Source: an uncultured delta proteobacterium (GTDB lineage: Bacteria; Desulfobacterota; Desulfobacteria; Desulfobacterales; UBA11574). From it: 64,000 nt of DNA. Shown here piece after piece: positions 5,384 through 57,719 of this stretch. Both the position numbers and the translations under genes were made by a program. Positions within the stretch are counted from its first letter, which is position 1, and every line of letters begins with the position of its first letter. The stretch spans positions 64,934 through 128,933 of the forward strand of contig CAVVZC010000021.1 of the NCBI GenBank assembly GCA_963752565.1, in the 5' to 3' direction. A model generated the notes under the pieces. The model searched no databases and was not told where the DNA came from. It saw nothing but the letters and a program-made list of their open reading frames with translations.

Positions 5384-6547
5384 ATGGATCAAGACGATAA
5401 AAAAAGGAGGGCAAAAAAAACAGTTTGTCCGTTGCAAAAGGCACCGCAAACCCTTCGAGTCGTCATTGGAGGAGGTGGGACCGGCGGCCATCTTTTTCCT
5501 GGAATTGCCATTGCTCAGGAGTTTCTGGCAAAAAACGCTGAAAACACTGTCTTGTTTGTGGGTACAGGGAAGCCGTTTGAAATTTCGATTTTGTCGGAAA
5601 CCGGTTTTGCCCATAGGCGCATTACCGCCGAGGGTTTCAAGGGGCGAGGCGTTTGGAATCAGATTGTCTCGATCTCGAAAGTACCCAAAGGGGTCATTGA
5701 ATCGATTTTGATCCTTAAAGGCTTTAAACCGCATATAGTGATTGGCGTTGGTGGATACTCCGCAGGGCCTTTGGTCATGGGCGCCTGGCTTTTGGGAATT
5801 AAAATTGTTTTGCATGAGCAGAATATTCTGCCGGGGATCACCAATCGAATTCTTTCGCGCTTTGCAGACCGGATATATGTTTCGTTTGCAGAAACGATAA
5901 TGGGCGTGACACCTAAAAAAATCCGGTTTACCGGAAATCCGGTGAGAAAAGAAATTGTTCAATGCGCAGAGACGTTAAAAAATACAGGTATCAAGGCGTC
6001 GAAAAAAGAGAAAAAATTCACGATCCTGATACTGGGCGGAAGCCAGGGGGCTCACAGTATAAATATGGCGCTTTTGGAAGCTCTTGAATACCTTGAAAAT
6101 AGAGAAAATATATTCTTTGTTCACCAAACCGGCGCCCAGGATGAAACACAGGTAAAGCAAAGGTATGACGAACACGGCATTGAAAACGATACGCGGGCAT
6201 TTTTCAAGGACATGGCCCGTCAGTATCAAAGCGCCGATTTCATTATATGCCGTGCAGGGGCAACCACCGTGGCGGAAATCAAAGCCATTGGGAAGGGGGT
6301 TATTTTTATTCCGTTTCCTTTTGCGGCAGATAACCATCAGGTATTAAACGCCCGATCTCTTGAAAAGGCAGGGGCTGCCGAGATGATTCTTGAAAAAGAC
6401 CTCAGCGGTAAAATCCTTGGAGAACGAATCAATTATTATGTTCAACGGCCCGAAGCCCTGCAACAAATGTCGTCACGGTCCAGGGATCTTGGACGTGTCG
6501 ATGCGGCAGCGATGATTGTCGATGATTGTTATGAGTTGATTTCTTAA
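5384..6547 (+). CDS. murG: UDP-GlcNAc:undecaprenyl-PP-MurNAc-pentapeptide GlcNAc transferase
   Basis: 387 aa. GGGTGGHLFPG motif and dcw order. Confidence 0.9.
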   Translation: MDQDDKKRRAKKTVCPLQKAPQTLRVVIGGGGTGGHLFPGIAIAQEFLAKNAENTVLFVGTGKPFEISILSETGFAHRRITAEGFKGRGVWNQIVSISKVPKGVIESILILKGFKPHIVIGVGGYSAGPLVMGAWLLGIKIVLHEQNILPGITNRILSRFADRIYVSFAETIMGVTPKKIRFTGNPVRKEIVQCAETLKNTGIKASKKEKKFTILILGGSQGAHSINMALLEALEYLENRENIFFVHQTGAQDETQVKQRYDEHGIENDTRAFFKDMARQYQSADFIICRAGATTVAEIKAIGKGVIFIPFPFAADNHQVLNARSLEKAGAAEMILEKDLSGKILGERINYYVQRPEALQQMSSRSRDLGRVDAAAMIVDDCYELIS

Positions 6548-6635
6548 TTATGAATTTTGTGAATTCTTACTTGTAACTTTTTCGGCTTATCCGGATTAGG
6601 TTAGTCAAACCAATAAAACGAATTGAACCAAACAT

Positions 6636-8003
6636 ATGTTTCTTAAAAAATACCATATTCACTTTGTGGGAATCGGCGGTATCGGAATGAGCGGAATTGC
6701 CGAACTTCTGCTCAACCTCGGCTATAAAGTGTCCGGATCTGACATCAGTTCTTCAGACATTACCCGGCGCCTGGAAAGCCTTGGCGGTATCATATTTAAA
6801 GGTCATTCCGAAGCACAGATTCTCGGTGCTGACGTTGTTGTCATATCATCAGCCGTCGGCCCTGAAAATCCTGAAGTTGTTGCAGCAGGTAGAGCGTCAA
6901 TCCCGGTCATACCCAGAGCGGAGATGCTGGCGGAACTGATGCGTTTAAAATACAGTGTGGCCATTGCCGGTGCACACGGGAAAACATCCACCACGTCGAT
7001 TGTCGCCGCCGTGCTGGGTAAAGGAGGGCTTGATCCGACGATCGTTATTGGTGGGAAACTCAAAAGTATCGATTCCAATGCGTTGCTTGGAGAAGGGGAT
7101 TTCATCGTTGCAGAAGCAGATGAAAGTGACGGTTCTTTTCTGAAAATCTCCCCGACCATCGCTGTGGTAACCAATATTGATCGAGAGCATCTCGATTTTT
7201 ATCGGGATCTGGAACACATCAAGGACGTTTTTTTGAGCTTTATTGAAAAAATACCGTTCTATGGCCTGGCGGTTCTTTGTTTGGACAATGAGCCCATCCA
7301 GTCGCTTATCCCGAAAATTCATAAACGGTTTACAACCTATGGAATGAGTACACAGGCAGATCTTAAGGCAAGAGATGTGGTTTTTGAAGGGTTAAAAAGC
7401 AGGTTTAAGGTGGATCATCTTGGAACATCTTTGGGAGAGATCACCTTAAATCTTCCGGGGATCCATAATGTATACAACGCTCTGGCAAGCATCGCCGTAG
7501 GCATCGAACTCGATATACCCTTTGACGTGATAAAATCTGCGCTTCAAACTGCGGAAGGCGTTCAACGGCGACTGGAAATTAAAGGAGAGAAGAAGGGGAT
7601 TACTGTTGTTGATGATTACGGTCATCATCCCACGGAGATTAAGGCTACGCTTCAGGCCGCAAGGAAAAGCTGGCCGGACAGGCGTATTGTGGTGGTGTTC
7701 CAGCCACATCGCTATACCAGAACCCAGGCGCTGTTTGAAGACTTTACCCGTGCGTTCTACGAGTCGGACCTTCTCGTCGTTCTTCCCATTTATGCCGCCG
7801 GAGAAGAAAAGATAGATGGTGTCGAGGGGTTTGCATTGTTTGAAGAAATCCAGCGTCATGGGCATAAGGGTGTCGTCTATGTGGAAAATCTTGAAACAGC
7901 GGTTTCGCATCTGAAAACAATTTCAGCGTCGAATGATATTATCCTTACACTGGGGGCAGGAGATGTTTGGAAAGTTGGCGAAATGTTGTTGAAAGAGTTG
8001 TGA
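6636..8003 (+). CDS. murC: UDP-N-acetylmuramate--L-alanine ligase
   Basis: 455 aa. [14 protein letters not shown]-terminus and P-loop [11 protein letters not shown]. Confidence 0.9.
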
Positions 8004-8009
8004 AAGGAC

Positions 8010-8969
8010 ATGACGGTTGTGGCGCTTGACTCGGATTCAATCAAATGGCTTGAAAGCCGTTTTAAAAATAACGTCAAATTTGGTGAACCGATGTCCAGGC
8101 ACACATCGTTGCGCGTCGGCGGGCCGGCCGAGGCTTTTGTAACACCTGAAAATGTTGAAGATCTAGAAATGCTGGTCAAATGGTCGTGGGATAGAGGGCT
8201 TTCTTATCTGATCATCGGCAAGGGCACCAATCTTCTGGTCAAAGACAACGGCATCCATGGCATCGTCATTGTGTTGACAAAGTGTTTGAGGAAAATTGAT
8301 CAGACCGATACGAACACCGACGGGGTGATTGTTAGGGCTATGGCAGGCGCAAATCTGAAAACCCTGTGTGCTTATGCACTGAAACAAGGCCTGGAAGGCA
8401 TGAATTTTGCCCTTGGCATTCCCGGAACGGTTGGCGGAGGCATTATTATGAATGCCGGAACGTCTCATGGTTCCATGGAAAATGTGCTTAAATCCATAAA
8501 TGTTCTTTTGCCCACAGGCCATACACGCAGAATTAAAAAAGAAGCGCTCGATTTTAATTATCGGAAGCTTTCATGGAGACCAGAGTTGACGGATGGTTAT
8601 CGCGATCAAACGGTTATATTGAACGGTCGATTCTGTCTTTGTCCTTCGGATTCCGAAACACTCAGAAAAACGGCTCGAGAAATTATAAGAGCACGCAAGC
8701 AAAGGCAGCCCATTGGTTTACCGAGTGCGGGATGTTTTTTTAAAAATCCGGCATCCGGAGAAACCGCCGGAAAACTTATTGAGATGGCCGACCTGAAAGG
8801 AAAATCCGTTGGCGGCGCAGAAATTTCATCAAAACATGCCAACTTTTTTATCAACCGGCATAAAGCATCAGCCGCCGACTTTCTGGCGCTGATGGATCTA
8901 TCTGAAAAAGTTGTATTAAAAAAGTTCAATATTCATCTGGAAAGAGAGGTTAAGGTTGTTGGTGCGTAA
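8010..8969 (+). CDS. murB: UDP-N-acetylenolpyruvoylglucosamine reductase
   Basis: 319 aa. FAD-binding N-terminus (LRVGGPAEAF) and SAGCFFKNP motif. Confidence 0.9.
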   Translation: MTVVALDSDSIKWLESRFKNNVKFGEPMSRHTSLRVGGPAEAFVTPENVEDLEMLVKWSWDRGLSYLIIGKGTNLLVKDNGIHGIVIVLTKCLRKIDQTDTNTDGVIVRAMAGANLKTLCAYALKQGLEGMNFALGIPGTVGGGIIMNAGTSHGSMENVLKSINVLLPTGHTRRIKKEALDFNYRKLSWRPELTDGYRDQTVILNGRFCLCPSDSETLRKTAREIIRARKQRQPIGLPSAGCFFKNPASGETAGKLIEMADLKGKSVGGAEISSKHANFFINRHKASAADFLALMDLSEKVVLKKFNIHLEREVKVVGA

Positions 8970-9810
8970 ACGCATACGAAAAAATTATTATAAAAACAGC
9001 GGCGCTAGAAAACGCAATAAGATTCTAAAGCGTTTTGTCTTCGGTATAAAACTAACGGCTGTTGGAACAGCGTTGGTGTTTGTCAGCCTGCTTTTTGTTT
9101 TTAGTTACGACTTCTTAACCCAGTGCGATTATTTCAAGGCTCAAGGATTGATGGTTATCGGTACACACCGACTCACACAAAACCAGGTTTTGAAACAGGC
9201 CAATATCACGAACGGCGTCAATATTTTTTCAGTTAATCTCTCTAAGGTTCGAAAGCGACTGCTTGCGCATTCATGGATTGATGATGCAGAAGTCCGCAGA
9301 GAACTTCCTTCGGGAATCAATATCAGGATAAAGGAACAAAAGCCCCTTGCCGTTCTTGACCTTGGCCGAAAATTTATCATCAATACCCATGGTGAAATAT
9401 TCAAAGAAATGGATAAGGCAGACCAGTGTAATTTGCCCATGATCAGCGGGCTTGAATTTTCAGACATTAATGTGAAGGGCGAGTTAAGAAGCATTCCATT
9501 TGATGCTGTTATGAAGATATTAGGGCTTGGGCAAAAACCTGAAAGTGTTCTACCCCACAGCCTAATAAAGAGAATCCACGTGGATCGCGAAATGGGCCTT
9601 TCCATTTATGCCTTCGATCACATCAGAGAAATAAAAATCGGATACAATAATTACCCGGATAAGTATGCCATGCTAAAAGATGTTCTTTTTTATCTGAAAA
9701 AGAATGGTGGGTTTTCACGCCTCGAATCAATTGATCTTAATAATTTGAATCGTATCGTTGTCAATCCTGCGAAAATAGAATCCGCTGCCAAGGGTCATAA
9801 GGAGGTTTGA
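8956..9810 (+). CDS. ftsQ: cell division protein FtsQ/DivIB (POTRA domain)
   Basis: 284 aa. Basic N-tail and a single TM segment (LTAVGTALVFVSLLFVF). Lies between murB and ftsA. The start is ambiguous (TTG 8956, TTG 8959 or GTG 8962). Confidence 0.8.
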   Translation: MLVRKRIRKNYYKNSGARKRNKILKRFVFGIKLTAVGTALVFVSLLFVFSYDFLTQCDYFKAQGLMVIGTHRLTQNQVLKQANITNGVNIFSVNLSKVRKRLLAHSWIDDAEVRRELPSGINIRIKEQKPLAVLDLGRKFIINTHGEIFKEMDKADQCNLPMISGLEFSDINVKGELRSIPFDAVMKILGLGQKPESVLPHSLIKRIHVDREMGLSIYAFDHIREIKIGYNNYPDKYAMLKDVLFYLKKNGGFSRLESIDLNNLNRIVVNPAKIESAAKGHKEV

Positions 9811-9811
9811 A

Positions 9812-11038
9812 ATGCAGGGACAGGAAAATATTATTGTCGGGCTGGATATCGGAACGACGAAAATATGTGCCGTGGTCGGTGAAATAACAGGAGATAAAAT
9901 AAATATTATCGGTATTGGAACACATCCCTCCATCGGACTTCGAAAGGGTGTTGTCGTAAATATTGAGTCCACCGTAGAATCGATTCAAAAGGCGATTGAA
10001 GAGGCGGAACTTATGGCGGGCTGTGAAATTTCATCCGTATATGCCGGGATCGCAGGTGGTCATATCACCGGTTTTAACAGTCGCGGAATCGTAGCAATCA
10101 AGGGGCCGGAAGTGGGCCAGCAAGATGTAGACCGGGTCATAGATGCTGCACGTGCCGTTGCAATTCCCATGGATCGTGAGGTCATTCATGTGATTCCACA
10201 GGAATTCATGATCGACGAACAGGGTGGAATTCAGAATCCTGTGGGTATGTCCGGTGTGCGCCTGGAAGCCAAGATTCACATTGTGACCGGTGCGGTAACA
10301 TCTGCACACAACATTGTGAAAAGTGCCAATCGGTCAGGCCTTGATGTCTGTGATATCGTTCTGGAACCGCTTGCTTCAGGAGAAGCGGTATTGACCGGTG
10401 AGGAAAAAGATCTGGGTACGGCCCTTATGGACCTCGGCGGCGGCACGAGCGATCTCGCCATTTTTTCAGGAAAAAATATCAAACACACATTTGTTCTGTC
10501 ACTTGGCGGTAACAACCTGACAAACGATATCAGTATCGGTTTACGTGCATCCATGGCCGACGCTGAAAAGATCAAGAAAAAATACGGTACATGCATCCCC
10601 AGGAACGTCAGTGCCGACGAAACCGTCGATGTCCCCGGAATGGGTGGGCGTAAACCCAGAAAACTTCAACGGCAGATCCTCGGTGAAATACTTGAACCAC
10701 GTATGGAAGAGATCTTTTCGCTGATAAAAAGAGAAATCTCCAGGGCTGGAATGGAAAAAATTATTACTTCCGGTGTCGTTCTAACCGGTGGGACATCCCT
10801 TTTAGAGGGCGTAACGGATATTGCGGAGTCGGTTTTCGATCTGCCAACCCGACTGGGCACGCCCAGGGGGATTAGCGGTCTCACGGATGTCGTCAATAAT
10901 CCCATGTATGCCACAGGTGTCGGACTCGTATTATACGGCGCCAGAAATCAACCAAAAAAGAAATTTAGGATTCGTGACACAAATATTTTCAACCGTGTCA
11001 TGACCCGGATGAAAAGATGGTTTAAGGAGGTTATATGA
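9812..11038 (+). CDS. ftsA: cell division protein FtsA
   Basis: 408 aa. Actin-like ATPase motifs VGLDIGTTKICAVVGE and DLGGGTSD. Confidence 0.95.
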   Translation: MQGQENIIVGLDIGTTKICAVVGEITGDKINIIGIGTHPSIGLRKGVVVNIESTVESIQKAIEEAELMAGCEISSVYAGIAGGHITGFNSRGIVAIKGPEVGQQDVDRVIDAARAVAIPMDREVIHVIPQEFMIDEQGGIQNPVGMSGVRLEAKIHIVTGAVTSAHNIVKSANRSGLDVCDIVLEPLASGEAVLTGEEKDLGTALMDLGGGTSDLAIFSGKNIKHTFVLSLGGNNLTNDISIGLRASMADAEKIKKKYGTCIPRNVSADETVDVPGMGGRKPRKLQRQILGEILEPRMEEIFSLIKREISRAGMEKIITSGVVLTGGTSLLEGVTDIAESVFDLPTRLGTPRGISGLTDVVNNPMYATGVGLVLYGARNQPKKKFRIRDTNIFNRVMTRMKRWFKEVI

Positions 11039-23422: not shown

Positions 23423-23710
23423 TTAAGCCGAACCTTCAACCATTTCCATAAACTTCTGCTGCATTTTTTGGGCAACCTGTATTCGATCATGTCCTTCACC
23501 CAGCCGTTGTCCCAGAAGTTTTCCTGCATCCACCGCAGCCTTCATCACTTCCGGTTGTTTGGTTACGTTGGGAATCATTTCCTCTGTGATCTTTACGCCG
23601 ACTCCGTAAAGCATATGGGGAACACCCACCTTTATGAGTCGGAGGCTTTCATATGCCCCGATAGCGGGATTTCCACTTCGCTCCAACAAGGCACTCAAGG
23701 GCGAAGCCAT
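23423..23710 (-). CDS. hypothetical protein, possibly a gene remnant; the N-terminal 17 codons are repeat-derived
   Basis: 95-aa ORF. Residues ALLERSGNPAIG are translated from the GTTGGAGCGAAG-type repeat at 23656-23690. The internal Met at 23614 would give 63 aa. Confidence 0.3.
   Translation of the reverse strand: MASPLSALLERSGNPAIGAYESLRLIKVGVPHMLYGVGVKITEEMIPNVTKQPEVMKAAVDAGKLLGQRLGEGHDRIQVAQKMQQKFMEMVEGSA
23656..23690 (-). repeat. copy of the GTTGGAGCGAAG(C/T)GGAAATCCCG... hairpin repeat (inverted orientation)
   Basis: The reverse complement reads GTTGGAGCGAAGTGGAAATCCCGCTATCGGGG. Compare the copies at 52741-52800 and 55676-56190. Confidence 0.7.
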
Positions 23711-24255
23711 CCCGCCAAGGCGGGATTACGAGTCCTTAATAACAAAATAGATGGAAGCGCCAGGCTCGCCCTTTGGAGTGAACATTGATGAGAAACAAAG
23801 AAAATGCCCCGATTTACCATTTGGGTAAAATGTATGATGATAGGATGTTGTTTAAACCCGCTTCAATTAAGGATGTTAAAGACTCTCATCAATTTTCATG
23901 CAAGATTCAGGGAGAATATGTCAGAAACACATGCTGCTGTCAAATGTGCTGTCAAAAATATGTTATGCACGTTAATTTAATATTCAATAAAAACAAGCAA
24001 TTGAATCTCAAAAAAAGAACTTGAATTATAGTTATTTTTTACATCACCCAAAAAACATTAATAACATGATATTTGACTTTTGAGGCCGATATTAATGATA
24101 AAATCGGCCCTGTTTTTTCCATTGATGGTAGGTTTTAACTGTTATGGATTGATATTTATTATCGTATTGACCATTGGATTTTCACGCTTATATTTAAGAT
24201 GAAGAAAAAAATAAGCATCAAAAGCCCTTGCGCTTAAAAAAACTTACGGGCTGAA

Positions 24256-48029: not shown

Positions 48030-48050
48030 AGAGTAATGGAAGAAAGCAAA

Positions 48051-48178
48051 GGTTTCAGGTGTCAGGTGTCAGGAAAATAGAGGTTTCAGTATTCAGTGTT
48101 CAGGTTTCAGCGGTTCCCTTTTTCTTTCCCGACACCTGACACCTGACACCTGACACCTGGTATCTGACACCTGAAACC
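48051..48178. repeat. long hairpin built from 7-nt tandem repeats, (GGTGTCA/GGTTTCA)n ... (TGACACC)n
   Basis: Left arm GGTTTCAGGTGTCAGGTGTCAGG. Right arm CGACACCTGACACCTGACACCTGACACCTGGTATCTGACACCTGAAACC. Starts 22 nt after the kinase stop. Confidence 0.85.
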
Positions 48179-48228
48179 TACATGTGCCTGAACTCAGAAC
48201 TCAGAACACCTCAAAGAGGAAATGACTA

Positions 48229-48286
48229 TTGACAAACCGAGTGCATCAGAATAGCATGACCATATAATATGTTAATAAAATATGGT
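48229..48286 (+). promoter_or_regulatory. candidate sigma70-type promoter (TTGACA-17-TAGCAT) and operator-like inverted repeat ACCATAT-N14-ATATGGT upstream of the antitoxin gene
   Basis: Hexamers at 48229-48234 and 48252-48257. Inverted-repeat arms at 48259-48265 and 48280-48286. Confidence 0.4.
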
Positions 48287-48309
48287 TTAACCATGCAAGG
48301 GGGTTCCTG

Positions 48310-48501
48310 ATGGCATTAGTAAAAAAAACCATAGAGTTGGACCAGGATGCAATCAACAGGATTAAAATAGCGTTGAATGCCAAAACAGAAAAAGAAGCGA
48401 TCAACACGGTATTGAAGCAATTCGACACCGATATTCGATTGGCGGAGATTACGTTTCAAAATGCCGGTTCCTATGATTATGAATCGGTATTCGAGGACTG
48501 A
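48310..48501 (+). CDS. type II antitoxin (VapB-like)
   Basis: 63 aa. TIELDQDAINRIKIALNAKTEKEAINTVLKQF matches the small antitoxin pattern. The stop lies 2 nt before the PIN gene start. Confidence 0.65.
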   Translation: MALVKKTIELDQDAINRIKIALNAKTEKEAINTVLKQFDTDIRLAEITFQNAGSYDYESVFED

Positions 48502-48503
48502 TT

Positions 48504-48923
48504 TTGCAGCAAAAAATTATCATTGATACAAATATTTACATCGATATTTTCAATAGGGGGCTGCAAAAAAATCTGAACAATCCGCTTAAGTATGTCGTTT
48601 TTTTAGCCCATCCGGTTCTTCATGAACTGTGGATGGGGGCAAAAGGGAAACGCGAAATCAAACACCTCTCTGAATTTCAGAACCGGTTTGTTCAGTTGAA
48701 GCGTATCGTTGTTCCCACGGTTTCCACTTTGATTGTTATCGGGCAGGCCTGTCAAAAACTCCGAAGCTCCGGCAGGCTTGACCCCACGCATCCAAAGCAT
48801 TACAACGATATATCTATTGCAGCCCTGGCGCGTCAGGTCGGGGCCACCGTGATCACTCAAAATATTCGCGATTTTAAGACGATTCAAAAAGTTATCGACT
48901 TTGAGTTCGAACGACAACCCTAA
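48504..48923 (+). CDS. PIN-domain toxin (VapC-like ribonuclease)
   Basis: 139 aa. N-terminal IIIDTNIYIDIF acidic motif, later D-containing segments (HYNDISIAALA), TTG start. Confidence 0.7.
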   Translation: MQQKIIIDTNIYIDIFNRGLQKNLNNPLKYVVFLAHPVLHELWMGAKGKREIKHLSEFQNRFVQLKRIVVPTVSTLIVIGQACQKLRSSGRLDPTHPKHYNDISIAALARQVGATVITQNIRDFKTIQKVIDFEFERQP

Positions 48924-48929
48924 AAAGGA

Positions 48930-49388
48930 ATGGAGTATTGGAGTGATGGAGTGGTGAGAAAGAACCGAAACCGCGGATACCAAAAGTTAACGGTGTGGAA
49001 AGATGCCATCGAATACTATGTGCTGACGTGTGATGTCTTTCGGTCTTTTCCTTTCGAGTTGAAGCGGGTGTCCTCACAACAGATAGCATCATCCGATTCT
49101 GTTCACCGAAATATCGCGGAGGGATACTGCCGACGTTCGATCAAGGAATACCTCAATTTCCTGAACATTTCTCTGGGTTCTTTGGGTGAGTCCGTATCAG
49201 GGCTCTTCGGTTATGTTAATGCAAAACAAATATCCAAGGCACATTTTGAGAAACTCGATTCCTTAGCCTATAAACTTGAAAATGGGCTTTTGAAGCTTGT
49301 TGAAAGCCTGGAGCGAAAGCGAGACAAAGGAGAATGGATTGACCATTTGGTTGTCAAGGAAAGCAATGCCGTTTATGGAAAAGAGTAA
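48930..49388 (+). CDS. four-helix-bundle protein (23S rRNA intervening-sequence protein family)
   Basis: 152 aa. YQKLTVWKDAIEYYVLTCDV, SVHRNIAEGYCR and EYLNFLNISLGSLGES are characteristic of the family. The first about 9 codons are encoded by the (GGAGTNNN)3 repeat. Confidence 0.75.
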   Translation: MEYWSDGVVRKNRNRGYQKLTVWKDAIEYYVLTCDVFRSFPFELKRVSSQQIASSDSVHRNIAEGYCRRSIKEYLNFLNISLGSLGESVSGLFGYVNAKQISKAHFEKLDSLAYKLENGLLKLVESLERKRDKGEWIDHLVVKESNAVYGKE

Positions 49389-49390
49389 CC

Positions 49391-49447
49391 CAATACTCCA
49401 TCACGCCAGCACTCCAGTACTCCAGTACTCCAACTCTCCAGTTCTCC
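49391..49447. repeat. 8-nt-periodic (ACTCCNNN)n block, inverted partner of (GGAGTNNN)3 at 48927-48958
   Basis: CAATACTCCATCACGCCAGCACTCCAGTACTCCAGTACTCCAACTCTCCAGTTCTCC on the right versus GGAATGGAGTATTGGAGTGATGGAGTGGTGAG on the left. CCAATACTCC and ACTCCATCAC are exact complements of left-arm strings. Confidence 0.8.
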
Positions 49448-49508
49448 GTGGAAACGTGAGCGGGATGCCCGTACCACCCACAGATTGTGACGAGGAGATT
49501 ACGTAACC

Positions 49509-52500
49509 ATGCCTACCACCATCCTTTTGGTCGATGATCATCCGGTTTTTCGAAAAGGACTGCGCCAGCTTTTAGAAGAAGAACAGGATTTTAAAGTGGT
49601 GGGCGAGGCCGGTGACGGGAAAGAGGCAATAGCACTTGTCGGAAAACTATCGCCGGATGTGGTGGTCATGGACATCAACATGCCGAATTTCAACGGCATC
49701 GAGGCCACCCGGCAAATTGTTTCCGATTTTCCTGAAACCAAAATCGTGGCCCTGTCCATTCACTCCGGGAAACGTTTTATCGAAGATATGCTGCGAGCCG
49801 GTGCCGCTGGCTACATCCTGAAGGAATGCGCTCCCGAAGAGCTGACAAACGGCATGCGCGCCGTAATACGCGGCGAGATTTACCTGAGTCCTTCAGTCAC
49901 TGGAATTGTCGTTTCGGAGTTTGTGAAGGCAGAGACAAGCTTGCAGGATTCCGGAGATTATGATATGTGGACGGCCGGCAAGACGACCTCAATCATACAC
50001 ACCAAACTCCACCGGCCTCCGATTCCCCAAAACCATGTTCATCGTTCTCGGCTGCTTGAACAGCTTGAAAAGGGCCTCCGGAAACAACTCACACTGGTAT
50101 CGGCCCCTGCCGGATATGGCAAGAGCATCCTCTTGAGCTGTTGGCTGGAAAACTGTGATTGCCCCAATGCCTGGTATTCAGCGGATGAGAGCGATAACAA
50201 CCTACGTCAGTTTTTGATTTACTTTTTGACCGCTTTCCAGACCATGTTTCCCGACGCCGTGGAAAAGACCTTGGCCTTGGCAAACAGTGGAAATCTGCCT
50301 CCGATGAAGGTATTGCTGGCCAGCTTGATCAACGAAATGAACCTTGTTGATCAGGACTATATCCTGGTAATTGATGACATTCACCTGGTCCAGGAGAAAC
50401 AGATATACGACCTGTTAACTGAACTGCTGCGACATCCGCCGCAACGCATGCACCTGGTGCTGATCGGACGGCGGGATCCGTTTTTGCCCATATCTTCCTT
50501 CCGAGCCCAGGGACTGATGACTGAGATCCGCTTGCAGGATCTGTGCTTTACATCGGCAGAGACAAAGGCCTACCTGGAACAGGTGCTTGGGGAGCAAATC
50601 GAGGATGCCGTCGCCGAAAAATGGACGGAAATAACTGAAGGCTGGATAGCCGGATTACTCTGGCGGGACTTTCCATGCACCACAGGGGCGATGCAGCCGG
50701 CATTTTGTCCGAACTGCCTGAAGACATTCAATATGTGACAGAATATCTTTTCAATGAGGTTTTTAAGAGTCAATCTCCGGAAATTCGCCATTTTCTTTTG
50801 AGTACGGCCATTTTGGATCGATTCTGTGCGCCGTTGTGCAAGGTGTTGGTCGGCCTGGATGCAGAGTTAAGGCCGGATGACATAAATTCCTGGGATATTC
50901 TTGATTTGGTTAAAAATCAAAACCTGTTCGTCGTCAACCTGGACGCGGAAAACCGCTGGTTCCGATACCATCACCTGTTTCAGCAACTTCTGAAAAACCA
51001 GTTGATGCTGCATCGGAGCTCCGATGAGATTGTCGCCCTCCATTCCCGGGCAGGCAATTGGTTTGCCGAAAACAATCTTATCGATGAAGCGATCCGGCAT
51101 TTGCTGGCCGCTGGTGACGTGATCGGAGCGGCACAACTGGTTGAGAAAAATCGACAGGCCATGCTCGATAGTGATAGATGGTACGTCTTTGAAAAATGGC
51201 TGTCCATGTTGCCTGATACCGTTATTCAACAGCGGCCTATACTTCTCATGGCTCGAGTCTGGACACTCTATCATCAATTTGACATTCCGGCAATTCCATC
51301 GGTTGTTGATGCTGTGGAAGCGCTTTTAAAAGACGATCCTATGGAGCAGCATCTGCGTGGAGAAATCGATTTTTTTCGCGGGTATATTTACTATTTTCAG
51401 AATAAAGGTTCACACAGCCTGAAGCACCTTCAAGAGGCCCTGAAATTGGTTCCCGAGAAATATCATGAAATTCGAGGCCAGATCGAAATACTATATGGAT
51501 TGGCCAGGCAAATGCAAGGTCAGAAAGAAGACGCCGTTAAAACTCTGACTGACTTGCTGAATCATAAACAGCCGCCATTTAGCGTAAGGAAGACCCGTCT
51601 GTTGGTGACGCTTGTCTATATCCACATTATCTCGGGAGATCTGTACAAGGCATTCGTTGCAAACCAACAACTCTTTGACTTCGCAACAAAAAACAACTAC
51701 ATCTATGCGAAAGTGTGGAGTGTGTATCTTAAGGGACTGATCCACTTTTACCGTAATGAACTTGGAATGGCCATCGATCATTTCGGTCAAGCAATAGAAC
51801 AAAAATACATCTTTCACACTCGAGCTGTGGTTGACAGCATGGCCGGACTTATTTTTTCGTATCAAGCCGAAGGACAACCCGACCGGGCCGGCGAAACCAT
51901 GCAAAGCCTTTTTAAGTATGTTGCTTCCCAAAATGATCCGACCTATTTAATGATTGCTGACTCATGTAACGTACGGTTGTCGATCATGCAAGGAGAACTG
52001 ATATCAGCGATGGGTTGGCTTCGAGAAAGTTCTCCGCCCGTTGAGAACATGGTCTGGTGGCTGGAAATACCCGCTGTCACCCATTGCAAGGCACTTCTTG
52101 CTGAAGGATCGGACGAGAGCCTCGAGAAAGCCGAAATAAAGCTTCGGGAACTTTTGCAGCTGAATCAGGACAATCACAATACCTGTCATACGATTCACAT
52201 TATGCCTTTGCTGGCCATGGTGTATCATAAGCAGGGGCGGGATGATGAGGCGCTCACCATTCTGGAACAGGCCGTCGACCTTGCAAAACCCGGCGGATGG
52301 ATTCGGCCATTCGTTGAATTGGGTTCTCCCATGGTCGACTTGCTGAAACGATTGCCCAGGCAAAACGTCCACACGGAATTTGTCGAGAAACTCCTCGCTG
52401 CTTTCAGCGATAAGCAAACAGATCCTCCCGGTTTCCCAGTTCCCCCCTCTCCAAGTCCCCAAGTCTCCCCATCTCCAAGTCATCCCACTCCCCAGCCCCT

Positions 52501-52702
52501 GGTCGAGCCCCTGACCAACCGCGAGCTCGATATCCTGGATCTGCTGGCACAGCGTCTCCAAAACAAGGAAATTGCAGAGGAACTGTTCATTTCAAAGGAA
52601 ACCGTCAAAACACACCTGAACAACATCTACCAGAAGCTCAACGTCACCAATCGACGGAATGCGGTTGAAAAGGCCAAAAATCTGGGAATCCTTTCCCCTT
52701 AG
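49509..52702 (+). pseudogene. REC - STAND/MalT-like ATPase - TPR - LuxR HTH regulator, split by a 1-nt frameshift near 50652-50656
   Basis: ORF 49509-50738 carries the REC domain (ILLVDDHPVFRKGL, VVVMDINMP) and a P-loop (SAPAGYGKS). ORF 50675-52702 continues with MalT-like helical repeats and ends in LTNRELDILDLLAQRLQNKEIAEELFISKETVKTHLNNIYQKL. Frame 2 is open from 50639 and reads ...ITLAGLSMHHRGD, which continues ...TEGWIAG of frame 0. Confidence 0.7.
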
Positions 52703-52740: not shown

Positions 52741-52800
52741 GATAGCGGGATTTCCGCCACACTGCACAGGCGGACAAGTCCGCTTCGCTCCAACAAGGGC
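52741..52800 (-). repeat. GTTGGAGCGAAGCGGA-type repeat, long form with nested 26-nt hairpin insert (inverted orientation)
   Basis: The reverse complement GCCCTTGTTGGAGCGAAGCGGACTTGTCCGCCTGTGCAGTGTGGCGGAAATCCCG matches copy d at 56130-56190. Confidence 0.8.
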
Positions 52801-54318: not shown

Positions 54319-54365
54319 CAACCCAGAACCCGGAACCTTGAACCTTGAAACCTGAACCCGAAATC
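54319..54365. repeat. 7-nt-periodic (GAACCNN)n block
   Basis: CAACCCAGAACCCGGAACCTTGAACCTTGAAACCTGAACCCGAAATC. Related blocks lie at 57667-57696, about 58590-58615 and about 62009-62037. Confidence 0.7.
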
Positions 54366-55523
54366 TCAAGGTTTTGAAAGCAACAATTTTTCTCCATGGA
54401 TGACACTAATTTCTTCTGTAACCGGAAAATTTCTTTCTCCCATATACACCACAAATCCTTTGTGAATGACGCCTTCGTCGATGCCGGCTTGTAAATTGGC
54501 CCAGTCACTTTTACCAATGGATACCGAACACTTGAATTCAAATCCAATTCTCTCGGAGCCCCGGTCAATGATCAGATCGATCTCGGCACCGGCATGCGTT
54601 CTGTAAAAATAAAAAAGACTGCCGGCGTTTTGCAGCATTTCCAGGCTAATGAGTTGCTCAATCATAAAACCTTCCCAACTGCTTCCCCTTTTGGGCGATT
54701 CCAGCAGGGATCTTTCACTGGTAATTCCCAAAAGGTAATGCAATATCCCTGAATCCCGCATGTATATTTTTGCCGATTTTACGATTCTTTTTTTTATGTT
54801 CGGAAAATACGGGGATAAGCGTCGAACAATAAAATGACCTTCCATTAGATCCAGATAATTTTGAATTGTGTGATAGGAAACCCCCAGAGACCGTCCAAGG
54901 TCAGAAGCATTAAATAGGCCACCGTGCTGGTGAGCGAGCATAACCATCAACCGTCTGATCTGTATTGGAGATATCTTTACGCCATACCGCGGAATGTCAC
55001 GTTCAACAAACGTGCGGAGATAGTTTTCCTGCCAATTTTGCCATTTGGATTCTGTTTTTTCTCTTAATGCATCTGGAAACCCGCCCTTCAACCAAAAATT
55101 ATGAATGTCAATCTTCAGAGCGGTTATTTCCGAAAAGAGAAATGGCGTCAATTCAACAATACCGACCCTTCCGGCAAGGCTTTCTGAAATATGTTTCACC
55201 AGAACAGGATTCACAGACCCCAATAGGGTGTAGCTTCCGGTCTGTTGTCTGTCCAGATCAATCATAGATCTGAGAACAGGAAATAATTCCGGCAATGTCT
55301 GAGCCTCATCGATAATGAGAGGCGGTTCAAATCTTTTAAGTGCAAACTCAATGTCGTCTACAAACACTTGCTGATCAGACGGCCTTTCGAGATCAAAATA
55401 TTCACCCTCAAGAAAGTGCTTGGCCAGCGTGGTTTTACCGCACTGCCTCGGACCCAGGATAAGGACCGCCGGGAACTGTTGTGATAATTCTCGCACCATG
55501 ATTTCGGCTTGTCGTTTAATCAT
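54366..55523 (-). CDS. AAA-type ATPase with DUF4143-like C-terminal region (second paralog)
   Basis: 385 aa. Walker A LGPRQCGKTTL and Walker B IIDEAQ. Same architecture as the neighbour. Confidence 0.7.
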   Translation of the reverse strand: MIKRQAEIMVRELSQQFPAVLILGPRQCGKTTLAKHFLEGEYFDLERPSDQQVFVDDIEFALKRFEPPLIIDEAQTLPELFPVLRSMIDLDRQQTGSYTLLGSVNPVLVKHISESLAGRVGIVELTPFLFSEITALKIDIHNFWLKGGFPDALREKTESKWQNWQENYLRTFVERDIPRYGVKISPIQIRRLMVMLAHQHGGLFNASDLGRSLGVSYHTIQNYLDLMEGHFIVRRLSPYFPNIKKRIVKSAKIYMRDSGILHYLLGITSERSLLESPKRGSSWEGFMIEQLISLEMLQNAGSLFYFYRTHAGAEIDLIIDRGSERIGFEFKCSVSIGKSDWANLQAGIDEGVIHKGFVVYMGERNFPVTEEISVIHGEKLLLSKP

Positions 55524-55587
55524 GGTTGAATATTAGCACTACAACTTCTATATTTCAAGTGTTTTTTAATCACTTCCGTCAAAATAT

Positions 55588-56262
55588 CCCGTCCCCCAGT
55601 TTCTCCATCTCCCCATCTCCAAGTCTCCAAGTCTCTCCTTCCCCTTATCTTCCTGACCTCTGACCTCCGACACCTGTTGGAGCGAAGCGGAAATCCCGAT
55701 TTATCGGGGATCCCCTATGACCTGTTCCCTGACACCTTTCCCCATCACTCCAGCACTCCAACACTCCATTTCTTTTCCCCCATCCCCCCGTCTCCCCGTC
55801 TCCCGTCTCCAGTCTCCCTCCCTGACCTCCGACACCTGTTGGAGCGAAGCGGAAATCCCGATTTATCGGGACCTATGACCTGTTCCCTGACACCTTTCCC
55901 CATCACTCCAGCACTCCAACACTCCATTTCTTTACCCCCATCTCCCCGTCTCCAAGTCTCTCCTCCCCATCTCCTGACCTGACCTCTGACACCTGTTGGA
56001 GCGAAGCGGAAATCCCGATTTATCGGGGATCCCTGACACCTTTCCCCATCACTCCAGCACTCCAACACTCCATTTCTTTTCCCCCATCTCCCCGTCCCCC
56101 CGTCTCCCCGTCTCCCGACCCTGACACCTGTTGGAGCGAAGCGGACTTGTCCGCCTGTGCAGTGTGGCGGAAATCCCGATTTATCGGGGACACCCGAAAC
56201 CTGACACCTTTCCCCCATCACTCCAGCACTCCAACACTCCATTTCTTTACCCCCTCCCCCAT
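55588..56262. repeat. tandem array of four 135-160-bp composite repeat units
   Basis: Each unit is (CTGACC/CTGACACC)n, then GTTGGAGCGAAGCGGAAATCCCGATTTATCGGGGA, then CTGACACC, then CATCACTCCAGCACTCCAACACTCCATTTCTT, then (CCCCGTCT)n. Core copies lie at 55676-55710, 55838-55871, 55995-56029 and 56130-56190; the last carries a 26-nt insert. Confidence 0.85.
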
Positions 56263-56376
56263 TCCTAGCCCTTTTTTAGCCCTTTTTGGGGGATGTAAAG
56301 CCCCTTGGCGTAGACTAATCTAAAATTGCAATTATCCACCAGACCCATCTTTCTATAAAGATAAGGAACAAGAATC

Positions 56377-56712
56377 ATGCCGTATAAGATTAAAGATAGG
56401 TATCTGAAACTTGGGACGCCGGCTATCTATCGCATCGACGTCGAGGGGCCTCTGGATGAAAGCTGGTCCGACCGCCTTGCCGGTATGTGTATCAACCCAC
56501 ACAAAAGAACGGATCAATCAACGGTAACGACTCTGATTGGAAAAGTGATGGATCAGGCTGAGCTGACGGGAGTGCTCAACAGCCTCTATGAATTGCACCT
56601 GCCGATCTTAGCGGTGAAAGTTCTCAACGAAAAAAATGGCGATCGTGAAGATGAACTGAAGCCTGACCAGCCATCTCTATTGGAATCTGATGGGTCAGAT
56701 CGTACGAAATGA
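56377..56712 (+). CDS. small hypothetical protein
   Basis: 111 aa. The pattern YRIDVEGPLDESWSDRLAGM...TTLIGKVMDQAELTGVLNSLYELHLPILAV recalls a widespread small uncharacterised family. Confidence 0.5.
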   Translation: MPYKIKDRYLKLGTPAIYRIDVEGPLDESWSDRLAGMCINPHKRTDQSTVTTLIGKVMDQAELTGVLNSLYELHLPILAVKVLNEKNGDREDELKPDQPSLLESDGSDRTK

Positions 56713-57658: not shown

Positions 57659-57719
57659 TTTTAACCCCTGAACGTTGAACCCTTGAACTTAGAACCTAAA
57701 GTCAATAAAGGAATGAATA

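Follow-up and report, generated by a model that had tools for sequence, protein, structure and literature searches.

We analysed a 64,000-nucleotide (nt) stretch of DNA from an uncultured delta proteobacterium of the Desulfobacterales (GenBank assembly GCA_963752565.1, contig CAVVZC010000021.1, positions 64,934 to 128,933), here called the window, which carries a four-unit tandem repeat array at positions 55588-56262. The array lies between two genes. To its left is an ATPase gene with AAA_14 and DUF4143 domains, and to its right a gene for a 111-amino-acid (aa) protein that opens a DUF1254/DUF1214 cluster. The gap between them measures 853 nt (55524-56376), close to the 850 nt given in the initial annotation, and the two genes are simply divergent rather than "convergent and divergent" as stated there. 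Unit boundaries were set by anchoring on CACCTGTTGGAGCG. The features of the locus, in window coordinates, are as follows.

52746-52795, minus strand: long form of the hairpin element in inverted orientation, matching the unit-4 copy at 100% over 50 nt and lying 3.4 kb from it
54366-55523, minus strand: left flanking gene, AAA_14 + DUF4143 ATPase, with a promoter-like site at 55558-55530
55588-55670, plus strand: lead tract, 83 nt, made of a C-rich octamer run (CCCCATCT/CCAAGTCT), TCCTTCCCCTTATCTTC and three CTGACCT-type heptamers
55671-55832, plus strand: unit 1, 162 nt
55677-55709, plus strand: hairpin element copy 1 (TTGGA-GCGAAGC-GGAAAT-CCCGATTTATCGGGG)
55743-55774, 55901-55932, 56047-56078 and 56216-56247, plus strand: CACT octamer blocks, each the solo arm of an ACTCC-type four-helix-bundle cassette
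55777-55804 and 56096-56121, minus strand: G-quadruplex-type motifs, 2 of 48 such motifs in the whole genome
55833-55989, plus strand: unit 2, 157 nt
55839-55870 and 55996-56028, plus strand: hairpin element copies 2 and 3
55990-56124, plus strand: unit 3, 135 nt, without the two-heptamer segment CTATGACCTGTTCC
56125 to about 56254, plus strand: unit 4, about 130 nt, with a truncated tail and a nested 26-nt insert
56131-56189, plus strand: hairpin element copy 4, long form, 59 nt
56145-56170, plus strand: nested 26-nt insert ACTTGTCCGCCTGTGCAGTGTGGCGG, between GCGAAGCGG and AAATCCCG, with GCGGA duplicated at its ends
56255-56295, plus strand: closing boundary TCCCCCATTCCTAGCCCTTTTTTAGCCCTTTTTGGGGGATG, single-copy in this genome, which ends the array
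56377-56712, plus strand: right flanking gene, 111 aa, without a Pfam family

A composite array of four tandem units

Tandem Repeats Finder reported a period of 158 nt over 55660-56115 (2.9 copies, 88% matches, score 697), on a background of numerous 7- and 8-nt micro-repeats. The array contains exactly four copies of the 32-mer CATCACTCCAGCACTCCAACACTCCATTTCTT (at 55743, 55901, 56047 and 56216), which is found only there and did not appear in any of 100 shuffled sequences; the 20-mer GGAAATCCCGATTTATCGGG is likewise confined to exactly four occurrences in the array, with none expected in shuffles. Aligned pairwise, with indels left aside, the units are 93-99% identical. The four-unit tandem array that had been described from the sequence by eye is thus borne out by repeat detection, exact word counts and unit alignment.

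All units follow the same plan. A tract of CTGACAC-type heptamers, split in phase by a 33-nt hairpin element, is followed by an octamer block (CACTCCAN)3 and then by a second octamer block (CCCCGTCT)n. Unique linkers are common to all units and are shared at the same 93-99% identity, which argues that one block was duplicated in tandem, not that four separate junctions came to lie side by side. The small indels that had been noted between units are both real: the 26-nt insert is carried by unit 4, which without it is 99% identical to unit 3, and the 14-nt segment CCTATGACCTGTTC is present in units 1 and 2 only. This segment consists of exactly two heptamers (CTATGAC CTGTTCC), and an indel of two whole heptamers is a signature of slippage. 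The tails of the units alternate, with the lead tract and unit 2 having one type and units 1 and 3 the other, and a T/A site alternates in the same way, suggesting that a two-unit block was at one point duplicated as a whole.

Within the window but outside the array, the full hairpin module is found only at 52741-52800 and at about 23656-23690. The whole composite unit is unique to the array locus in the 4.05-Mb genome, which holds one partial paralogue at C4:60964-61130 (C-numbers denote contigs of this genome), and an exact search of metagenome contigs with the CACT block gave no matches. The initial annotation overstated the case in assembling the array from every small repeat family of the window, as the (GAACC)n family (54319-54365 and 57663-57696) lies outside it. 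Only one other non-coding long-period tandem array was seen in the genome (C24:23397-24051, 296 nt in 2.2 copies, 98% identical); its components are different small hairpins (CCCGCAATGCGGG, ATCCCCAGAGGGGAT) and an inverted heptamer-word hairpin.

The plus strand of the array is 43% C and 14% G, and open frames are to be expected on a strand poor in the letters of stop codons. Open reading frames (ORFs) of 165 aa on the minus strand and 101 aa on the plus strand (P0001, P0002) matched no family in a search of Pfam only. A protein-coding tandem repeat was rejected on this ground and because the unit lengths of 162, 157 and 135 nt shift, unit 2 not being a multiple of three as units 1 and 3 are. 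The description of the array as composite, nested, non-coding and free of a credible ORF therefore stands, and the locus serves as a warning to annotators that long open frames on the G-rich strand should not be called genes. A CRISPR array was rejected since the stretches between hairpins are themselves repeated at 93-99% and are not unique spacers. An integron-type array of cassettes or attachment sites was also rejected, there being no recombinase among the Pfam domains of the ten surrounding ORFs and no internal inverted symmetry beyond the small hairpin; a single inverted-repeat pair found in the region is incidental. Inside the array there were no promoter-like or terminator-like sites and no stem was followed by a T-run, which led us to reject a terminator model.

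The hairpin element and its nested insert

The hairpin element has the plan TTGGA-GCGAAGC-GGAAAT-CCCG(loop)CGGGG. Its GCGAAGC core is a textbook case of a very stable DNA mini-hairpin. Searched with a covariance model of 19 copies, the genome yielded 37 copies, and BLAST found the element in all 15 same-genus genomes. Its distribution in the phylum is patchy, with five positives among 150 evenly sampled genomes, four of the five having 13-24 copies. An exact 20-mer of the element was nonetheless present in more than 118 contigs of a species-level genome collection, distributed over Desulfobacterota, Bacteroidota, Ignavibacteriota, Zixibacteria, Calditrichota, Cloacimonadota, Stahlbacteria and Poribacteria. 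In the 118 cross-phylum copies analysed from these exact matches, the CGGG stem partner was retained in 109 and the fifth stem pair covaried (CG 38, TG 20, AT 19, GC 7, GT 4, TA 1). Variants of the mini-hairpin, GTGAAAC and GTGCAAC, preserve the hairpin.

When the element was removed computationally from period-7 tracts, the flanking heptamers were in phase for 23 of 33 distinct copies, with six more off by one ambiguous boundary base, compared to roughly one in seven expected by chance. The flanking heptamers of array units 2-4 are in phase after such removal. Of 142 copies, 97 have a left flank with CTTG or CCTG at its end, and the element has a fixed orientation relative to the heptamer. 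In-phase excision, a preferred flank, the fixed orientation and a covarying stem together indicate that the hairpin element is an inserted entity and not a diverged heptamer.

The long form of the element in unit 4 records a second level of insertion. Its nested 26-nt insert amounts to 21 nt plus the 5-nt GCGGA duplication, and at 8 of the 8 sites in this genome that keep the left part of the host element (GCGAAGCGG) it follows that part at the same position; the left part is missing at two further insert sites (C2:168517 and C13:173939). The insert was also found in same-genus genomes. The inverted copy at 52746-52795 is the likely donor of the insert in unit 4. A full-text literature search for GGAGCGAAGCGG returned only an unrelated primer.

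Several other settings of the hairpin element were observed. It is carried inside a larger dispersed element, about 300 nt long and with ends that pair in a long stem (CCTGAATCTTGCA...TGCAAGATTCAGG), of which this genome has about 11 copies (window 23600-23900 on the minus strand, C3:62277, C3:68571, C3:645753, C3:700945, C13:28248, C22:35040, C23:14294, C25:110758 and C26:59723 among them). Near-identical copies of this larger element occur in metagenome-assembled genomes (MAGs) of Desulfobacteraceae, including Eth-SRB2 (L015, L049, L051), and it had no match in Rfam. RHS-type orphan cassettes of Prolixibacteraceae and Mariniphaga MAGs carry the hairpin element immediately behind their conserved YYxFG(M) motif (L019 832-851 and 2461-2480; L046 1407-1426); in L019 its 34 nt shift the frame of the cassette, and precise excision would restore it. 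Spacer-free head-to-tail clusters of two to four hairpin variants were seen at C2:48003-48104, C1:11641-11723 and C6:385201-385282, for example GTTGGAGCG..CGGG GTCGGAGCG..CGGG GTTGGAGTG..CGGG, with compensatory changes in the GCGAAGC mini-hairpin. Finally, unrelated genes end in ...AAACCCTAA, followed by CCCGGACAAGCC and then by a hairpin copy (C28:27520-27600, C2:55990-56070, C13:173890-173975), and it seems that the final codons and stop codon of these genes come from a repeat.

Solo arms, the same site in relatives and the origin of the array

The octamer blocks connect the array to genes of PF05635, the four-helix-bundle "23S rRNA IVS protein" family. In this genome most intact PF05635 genes lie between two inverted arrays of a 7-8-nt word that differs from gene to gene. 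Runs of the ACTCC octamer are found at three loci only, all on the contig of the array. At two of these they form both arms of a PF05635 gene (window 48930-49388 and C21:5428-5709), and the third is the array, with four solo, direct copies; the 3' flank of the C21:5428 gene runs on into the array-unit tail TTTCTTTATCCCCC...CCAAGTC. No PF05635 ORF is present in 55524-56376, where the arms are solo and direct and not inverted around a gene. The lead tract aligns with positions 9590-9690 of L138, a metagenome contig (the same as L149) that is syntenic with the left side of the array. That segment lies immediately 3' of a PF05635 gene (L138 9086-9520), whose upstream G-rich arm it matches as the inverted complement. 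By this alignment, the lead tract is the orphan 3' arm of a four-helix-bundle gene cassette. A literature search for PF05635 genes linked to flanking repeats yielded nothing useful.

We compared the same site in two relatives. In the same-genus genome G002 the flanking ATPase gene has 91% nucleotide identity to the copy studied here, and the site consists of a GAACC-type repeat, a single CACT block that has a short C-rich tail, and a closing motif ...TTTTTGGGGGATG, with no hairpin element and no array. In L138 a LuxR-type regulator (87% aa identity) is followed by the intact PF05635 gene between arms of (GGGGAGAC)n and (GTCTCCCC)n. Our lead tract aligns with the 3' arm of this gene, with the linker TCCTTCCCATTATCTTC and with CTGACCT heptamers. 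Beyond these lie a single hairpin element, heptamers and a different 62-nt unit (heptamer plus CACT) in two copies, then a nearly identical closing motif (10020-10062) and a 50%-identical homologue of the 111-aa gene. The array was not found in 15 same-genus genomes. It is real as assembled, non-coding and lineage-specific, and three repeat states at one site support in part the earlier suggestion of a recombination hotspot. These differing states at an orthologous site indicate that the array was amplified in this lineage, within a spacer prone to slippage.

Related versions of the closing boundary TCCCCCATTCCTAGCCCTTTTTTAGCCCTTTTTGGGGGATG occur in G002 and L147 with different genes downstream (in G002 an insertion sequence transposase), and this boundary may be a regulatory site or the end of an element. 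An orthologue search with the 111-aa gene gave one weak match only within the genus, which marks the right flank as accessory. On the left, L138 has a 31/55-nt higher-order heptamer array between kinase and regulator (5738-5871) where the window has a toxin-antitoxin plus four-helix-bundle cassette (48030-49508), and the pair can be read as an empty-site comparison for that cassette. From these sequence comparisons, this spacer appears to change by slippage, higher-order duplication, insertion of small elements and gain or loss of cassettes. As a separate observation, the response-regulator/AAA/MalT-TPR/LuxR protein is split in our genome into overlapping ORFs (window 49509-50738 and 50675-52702), and its L138 counterpart at 5850-9089 is a single 1079-aa ORF, 87% identical over the LuxR half; the split is either a frameshift or an assembly indel.

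We consider it probable that the array is a recent, lineage-specific tandem amplification of a composite non-coding spacer block without a dedicated function. The starting point would have been a spacer upstream of the 111-aa gene with CTGACAC-type heptamers and two octamer runs, the latter being solo arms of PF05635 cassettes whose genes are gone. The 33-nt element, with its GCGAAGC mini-hairpin and CCCG-loop-CGGG stem, would then have inserted into the heptamer tract after YTG, in a site- and orientation-specific manner that left the phase undisturbed. Unequal recombination or replication slippage between short repeats could have amplified the resulting block of about 158 nt to four copies, probably including one duplication of a two-unit block, with heptamer-sized slippage indels later. 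Unit 4 would have gained its 26-nt insert last, either through a fresh insertion or through gene conversion with the inverted copy 3.4 kb away as donor. The array itself probably has no function, and any effect on neighbouring genes, through promoter spacing, hairpins in a long leader or G-quadruplex potential, would be incidental. The array is in itself ordinary, its building blocks being variants of known repeats; its value is as an example of how spacers grow when tiny elements nest, cassette genes disappear from between arms that then stand alone, tracts slip and whole blocks undergo higher-order duplication.

Several observations weigh against this reading. Some short non-coding motifs, among them the closing boundary and TCCTTCCC.TTATCTTCCTGACCT, are better conserved between our genome and L138 than the adjacent right-hand genes are (37-50% aa identity), which could be a sign of constraint and speak against junk. 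Comparable arrangements of the modules are found at C4:60964-61130, in G012 (L002) and in L138; the composite could thus be a dispersed element in its own right and have some role. We identified no enzyme for moving the hairpin element; the only Y1 transposase gene in the genome (a single PF01797 match) carries three TAA stops and is degraded. Lastly, the minus strand is strikingly asymmetric, with 53 GGA in 675 nt, five times the genome mean.

This asymmetry is the starting point for an unlikely alternative, in which the array is transcribed and acts as RNA, either as a long repetitive leader or as a separate non-coding RNA. A GGA/GGAG-rich minus-strand transcript could titrate an RNA-binding protein such as CsrA, for which a gene is present (C6:15112-15270), or a CUCC-rich plus-strand transcript could pair with Shine-Dalgarno sequences. 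Promoter-like sites lie just outside the array at either end and are directed into it (plus strand 55526-55554, minus strand 56359-56331), and unit 4, with its insert, folds better than shuffled sequences (z = -3.4). Units 1-3, in contrast, fold no better than shuffles (z = -0.6 to -1.1), there is no terminator, and G002 and L138 lack the array or carry something different at the orthologous site. The GGA richness follows from the GGAG-based octamer arms that are found around four-helix-bundle genes. Rfam gave nothing at gathering score on the window and, at E <= 1, only two RsmY matches on the minus strand (17.2 and 14 bits, E 0.12 and 0.97); these scores are far under the 57-bit gathering score, and RsmY identity was rejected as compositional. 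An RNA sponge is thus without positive support, and the earlier proposal that the array is a source of structured RNAs is unsupported, there being no Rfam family, no promoter or terminator per unit, mostly unremarkable fold z-scores and no conservation of the array in relatives.

Two further readings involve the octamer arms. The first, which we regard as decidedly doubtful, is that word-repeat arms, Avd-like PF05635 genes and the 33-nt hairpin form one mobile system spread across phyla. Here the PF05635 protein, a relative of the DGR accessory protein bAvd, may help to copy or insert hairpins into heptamer tracts, and arrays like the present one would be stacked footprints of the process. The four multi-copy genomes of the phylum sample (G117, G147, G179 and G186, from four families) carry 8-13 PF05635 genes each, and at least eight such genes are found in only 14 of the 150 sampled genomes, including all four of these, an association that is uncontrolled.

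The second, very unlikely in our estimate, treats the units as docking or attachment sites, stacked landing pads for four-helix-bundle cassettes with or without a toxin-antitoxin pair, much as the initial annotation had proposed in calling them empty cassette junctions or scars. Part of that proposal holds. The C-rich tract is the 3' arm of a four-helix-bundle gene kept in L138 and absent here, so that an intact cassette stands there exactly where our genome keeps only the arm; the CACT octamers are arms of two other four-helix-bundle genes on the same contig, making both octamer blocks arms of such cassettes; and the cassette between kinase and regulator is matched in L138 by repeats only. 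The fourfold repetition has another explanation, however. Unit identity spans the unique linkers, as expected of tandem duplication and not of four independent junctions. Cassette arms are inverted, and recombination between them inverts rather than deletes, whereas all four array arms are direct and partnerless. No recombinase domain was present among the Pfam domains of ten ORFs around the array, nor was any attachment-site logic found.

That the copy number is an artefact, by over-expansion of a repeat or a chimeric join of population variants in a MAG with an estimated contamination of 2.3%, is highly improbable: the units are about short-read length and 93-99% alike, but each has diagnostic differences (14- and 26-nt indels, alternating tails and single-nucleotide polymorphisms), the array is internal to a 131-kb contig, and the assembly resolves 1-2-kb arrays of 198-285-nt repeats elsewhere.

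Comparison with known repeat systems

The octamer blocks of the array, being the word-repeat arms found around PF05635 genes in this genome and in L138, recall the stem-bracketed 23S rRNA intervening sequences that hold an S23p/PF05635 ORF. In contrast to these, the array has no gene and no inverted partner arm and does not lie in an rRNA operon. Head-to-tail non-coding units of about 100-160 nt upstream of a gene are also a feature of NsiR1, a tandem small RNA array reportedly described by Ionescu et al. in 2010 from Anabaena/Nostoc. Our array differs in having no promoter or terminator per unit, no Rfam match and no conservation in relatives, being absent from 15 same-genus genomes, and an NsiR1-like tandem small RNA array was rejected on these grounds.

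Among short intergenic hairpins, REP, BIME and REPIN elements are mobilised by RAYT transposases (Bertels & Rainey 2011, PMC3116915). The hairpin element resembles REPs and REPINs in having a conserved head, in being multi-copy and clustered, and in sometimes forming tandem mosaics. It departs from them in that REPs are species-specific and its own sequence is common to several phyla, that the four array copies are all direct and not inverted doublets, and that the genome has no intact Y1/RAYT gene, the sole copy being interrupted by the three stops noted above. With only a degraded Y1 transposase gene present, we rejected the RAYT/REP model as unlikely. TAACTGA intergenic heptamer direct repeats have been described in marine Beggiatoaceae (MacGregor 2015, PMC4679880), and these too are abundant intergenic heptamers of a sediment bacterium that are common to distant lineages. 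The heptamer here is a different one, hairpin inserts are unmentioned in PMC4679880, and the heptamers of our genome mostly form inverted hairpins after genes, the direct tract being that of the array.

The closest described phenomenon is the combination of STRR heptamer repeats with nested small dispersed repeats (SDR) in Nostocaceae cyanobacteria, which Elhai et al. are said to have described in 2008 (Genome Res 18:1484). SDRs are reportedly 21-27 nt long, comprise SDR1-8 and are confined to one cyanobacterial subgroup. In both systems tiny hairpins lie inside heptamer tracts and inside miniature transposon-like elements, and both display nesting, compensatory stem changes and near-identical copies with and without the insert. 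The STRR/SDR work of Elhai et al. 2008 is cited in PMC5861425. The present element is set apart by length and host. Its main form of 33 nt is outside the 21-27-nt range (the nested insert, at 26 nt, is within it), the host is not a cyanobacterium, the 24-nt head of the element is conserved across many phyla, and the composite has been amplified further, as a 158-nt higher-order tandem repeat. The cross-phylum head, together with in-phase one-way insertion and the nested insert, suggests that the STRR/SDR phenomenon is much more widespread than Nostoc-type cyanobacteria. The spread of the hairpin element is explained by no known transposase, and units 3 and 4 of the array, as near-identical empty and filled sites, offer a place to study the mechanism.

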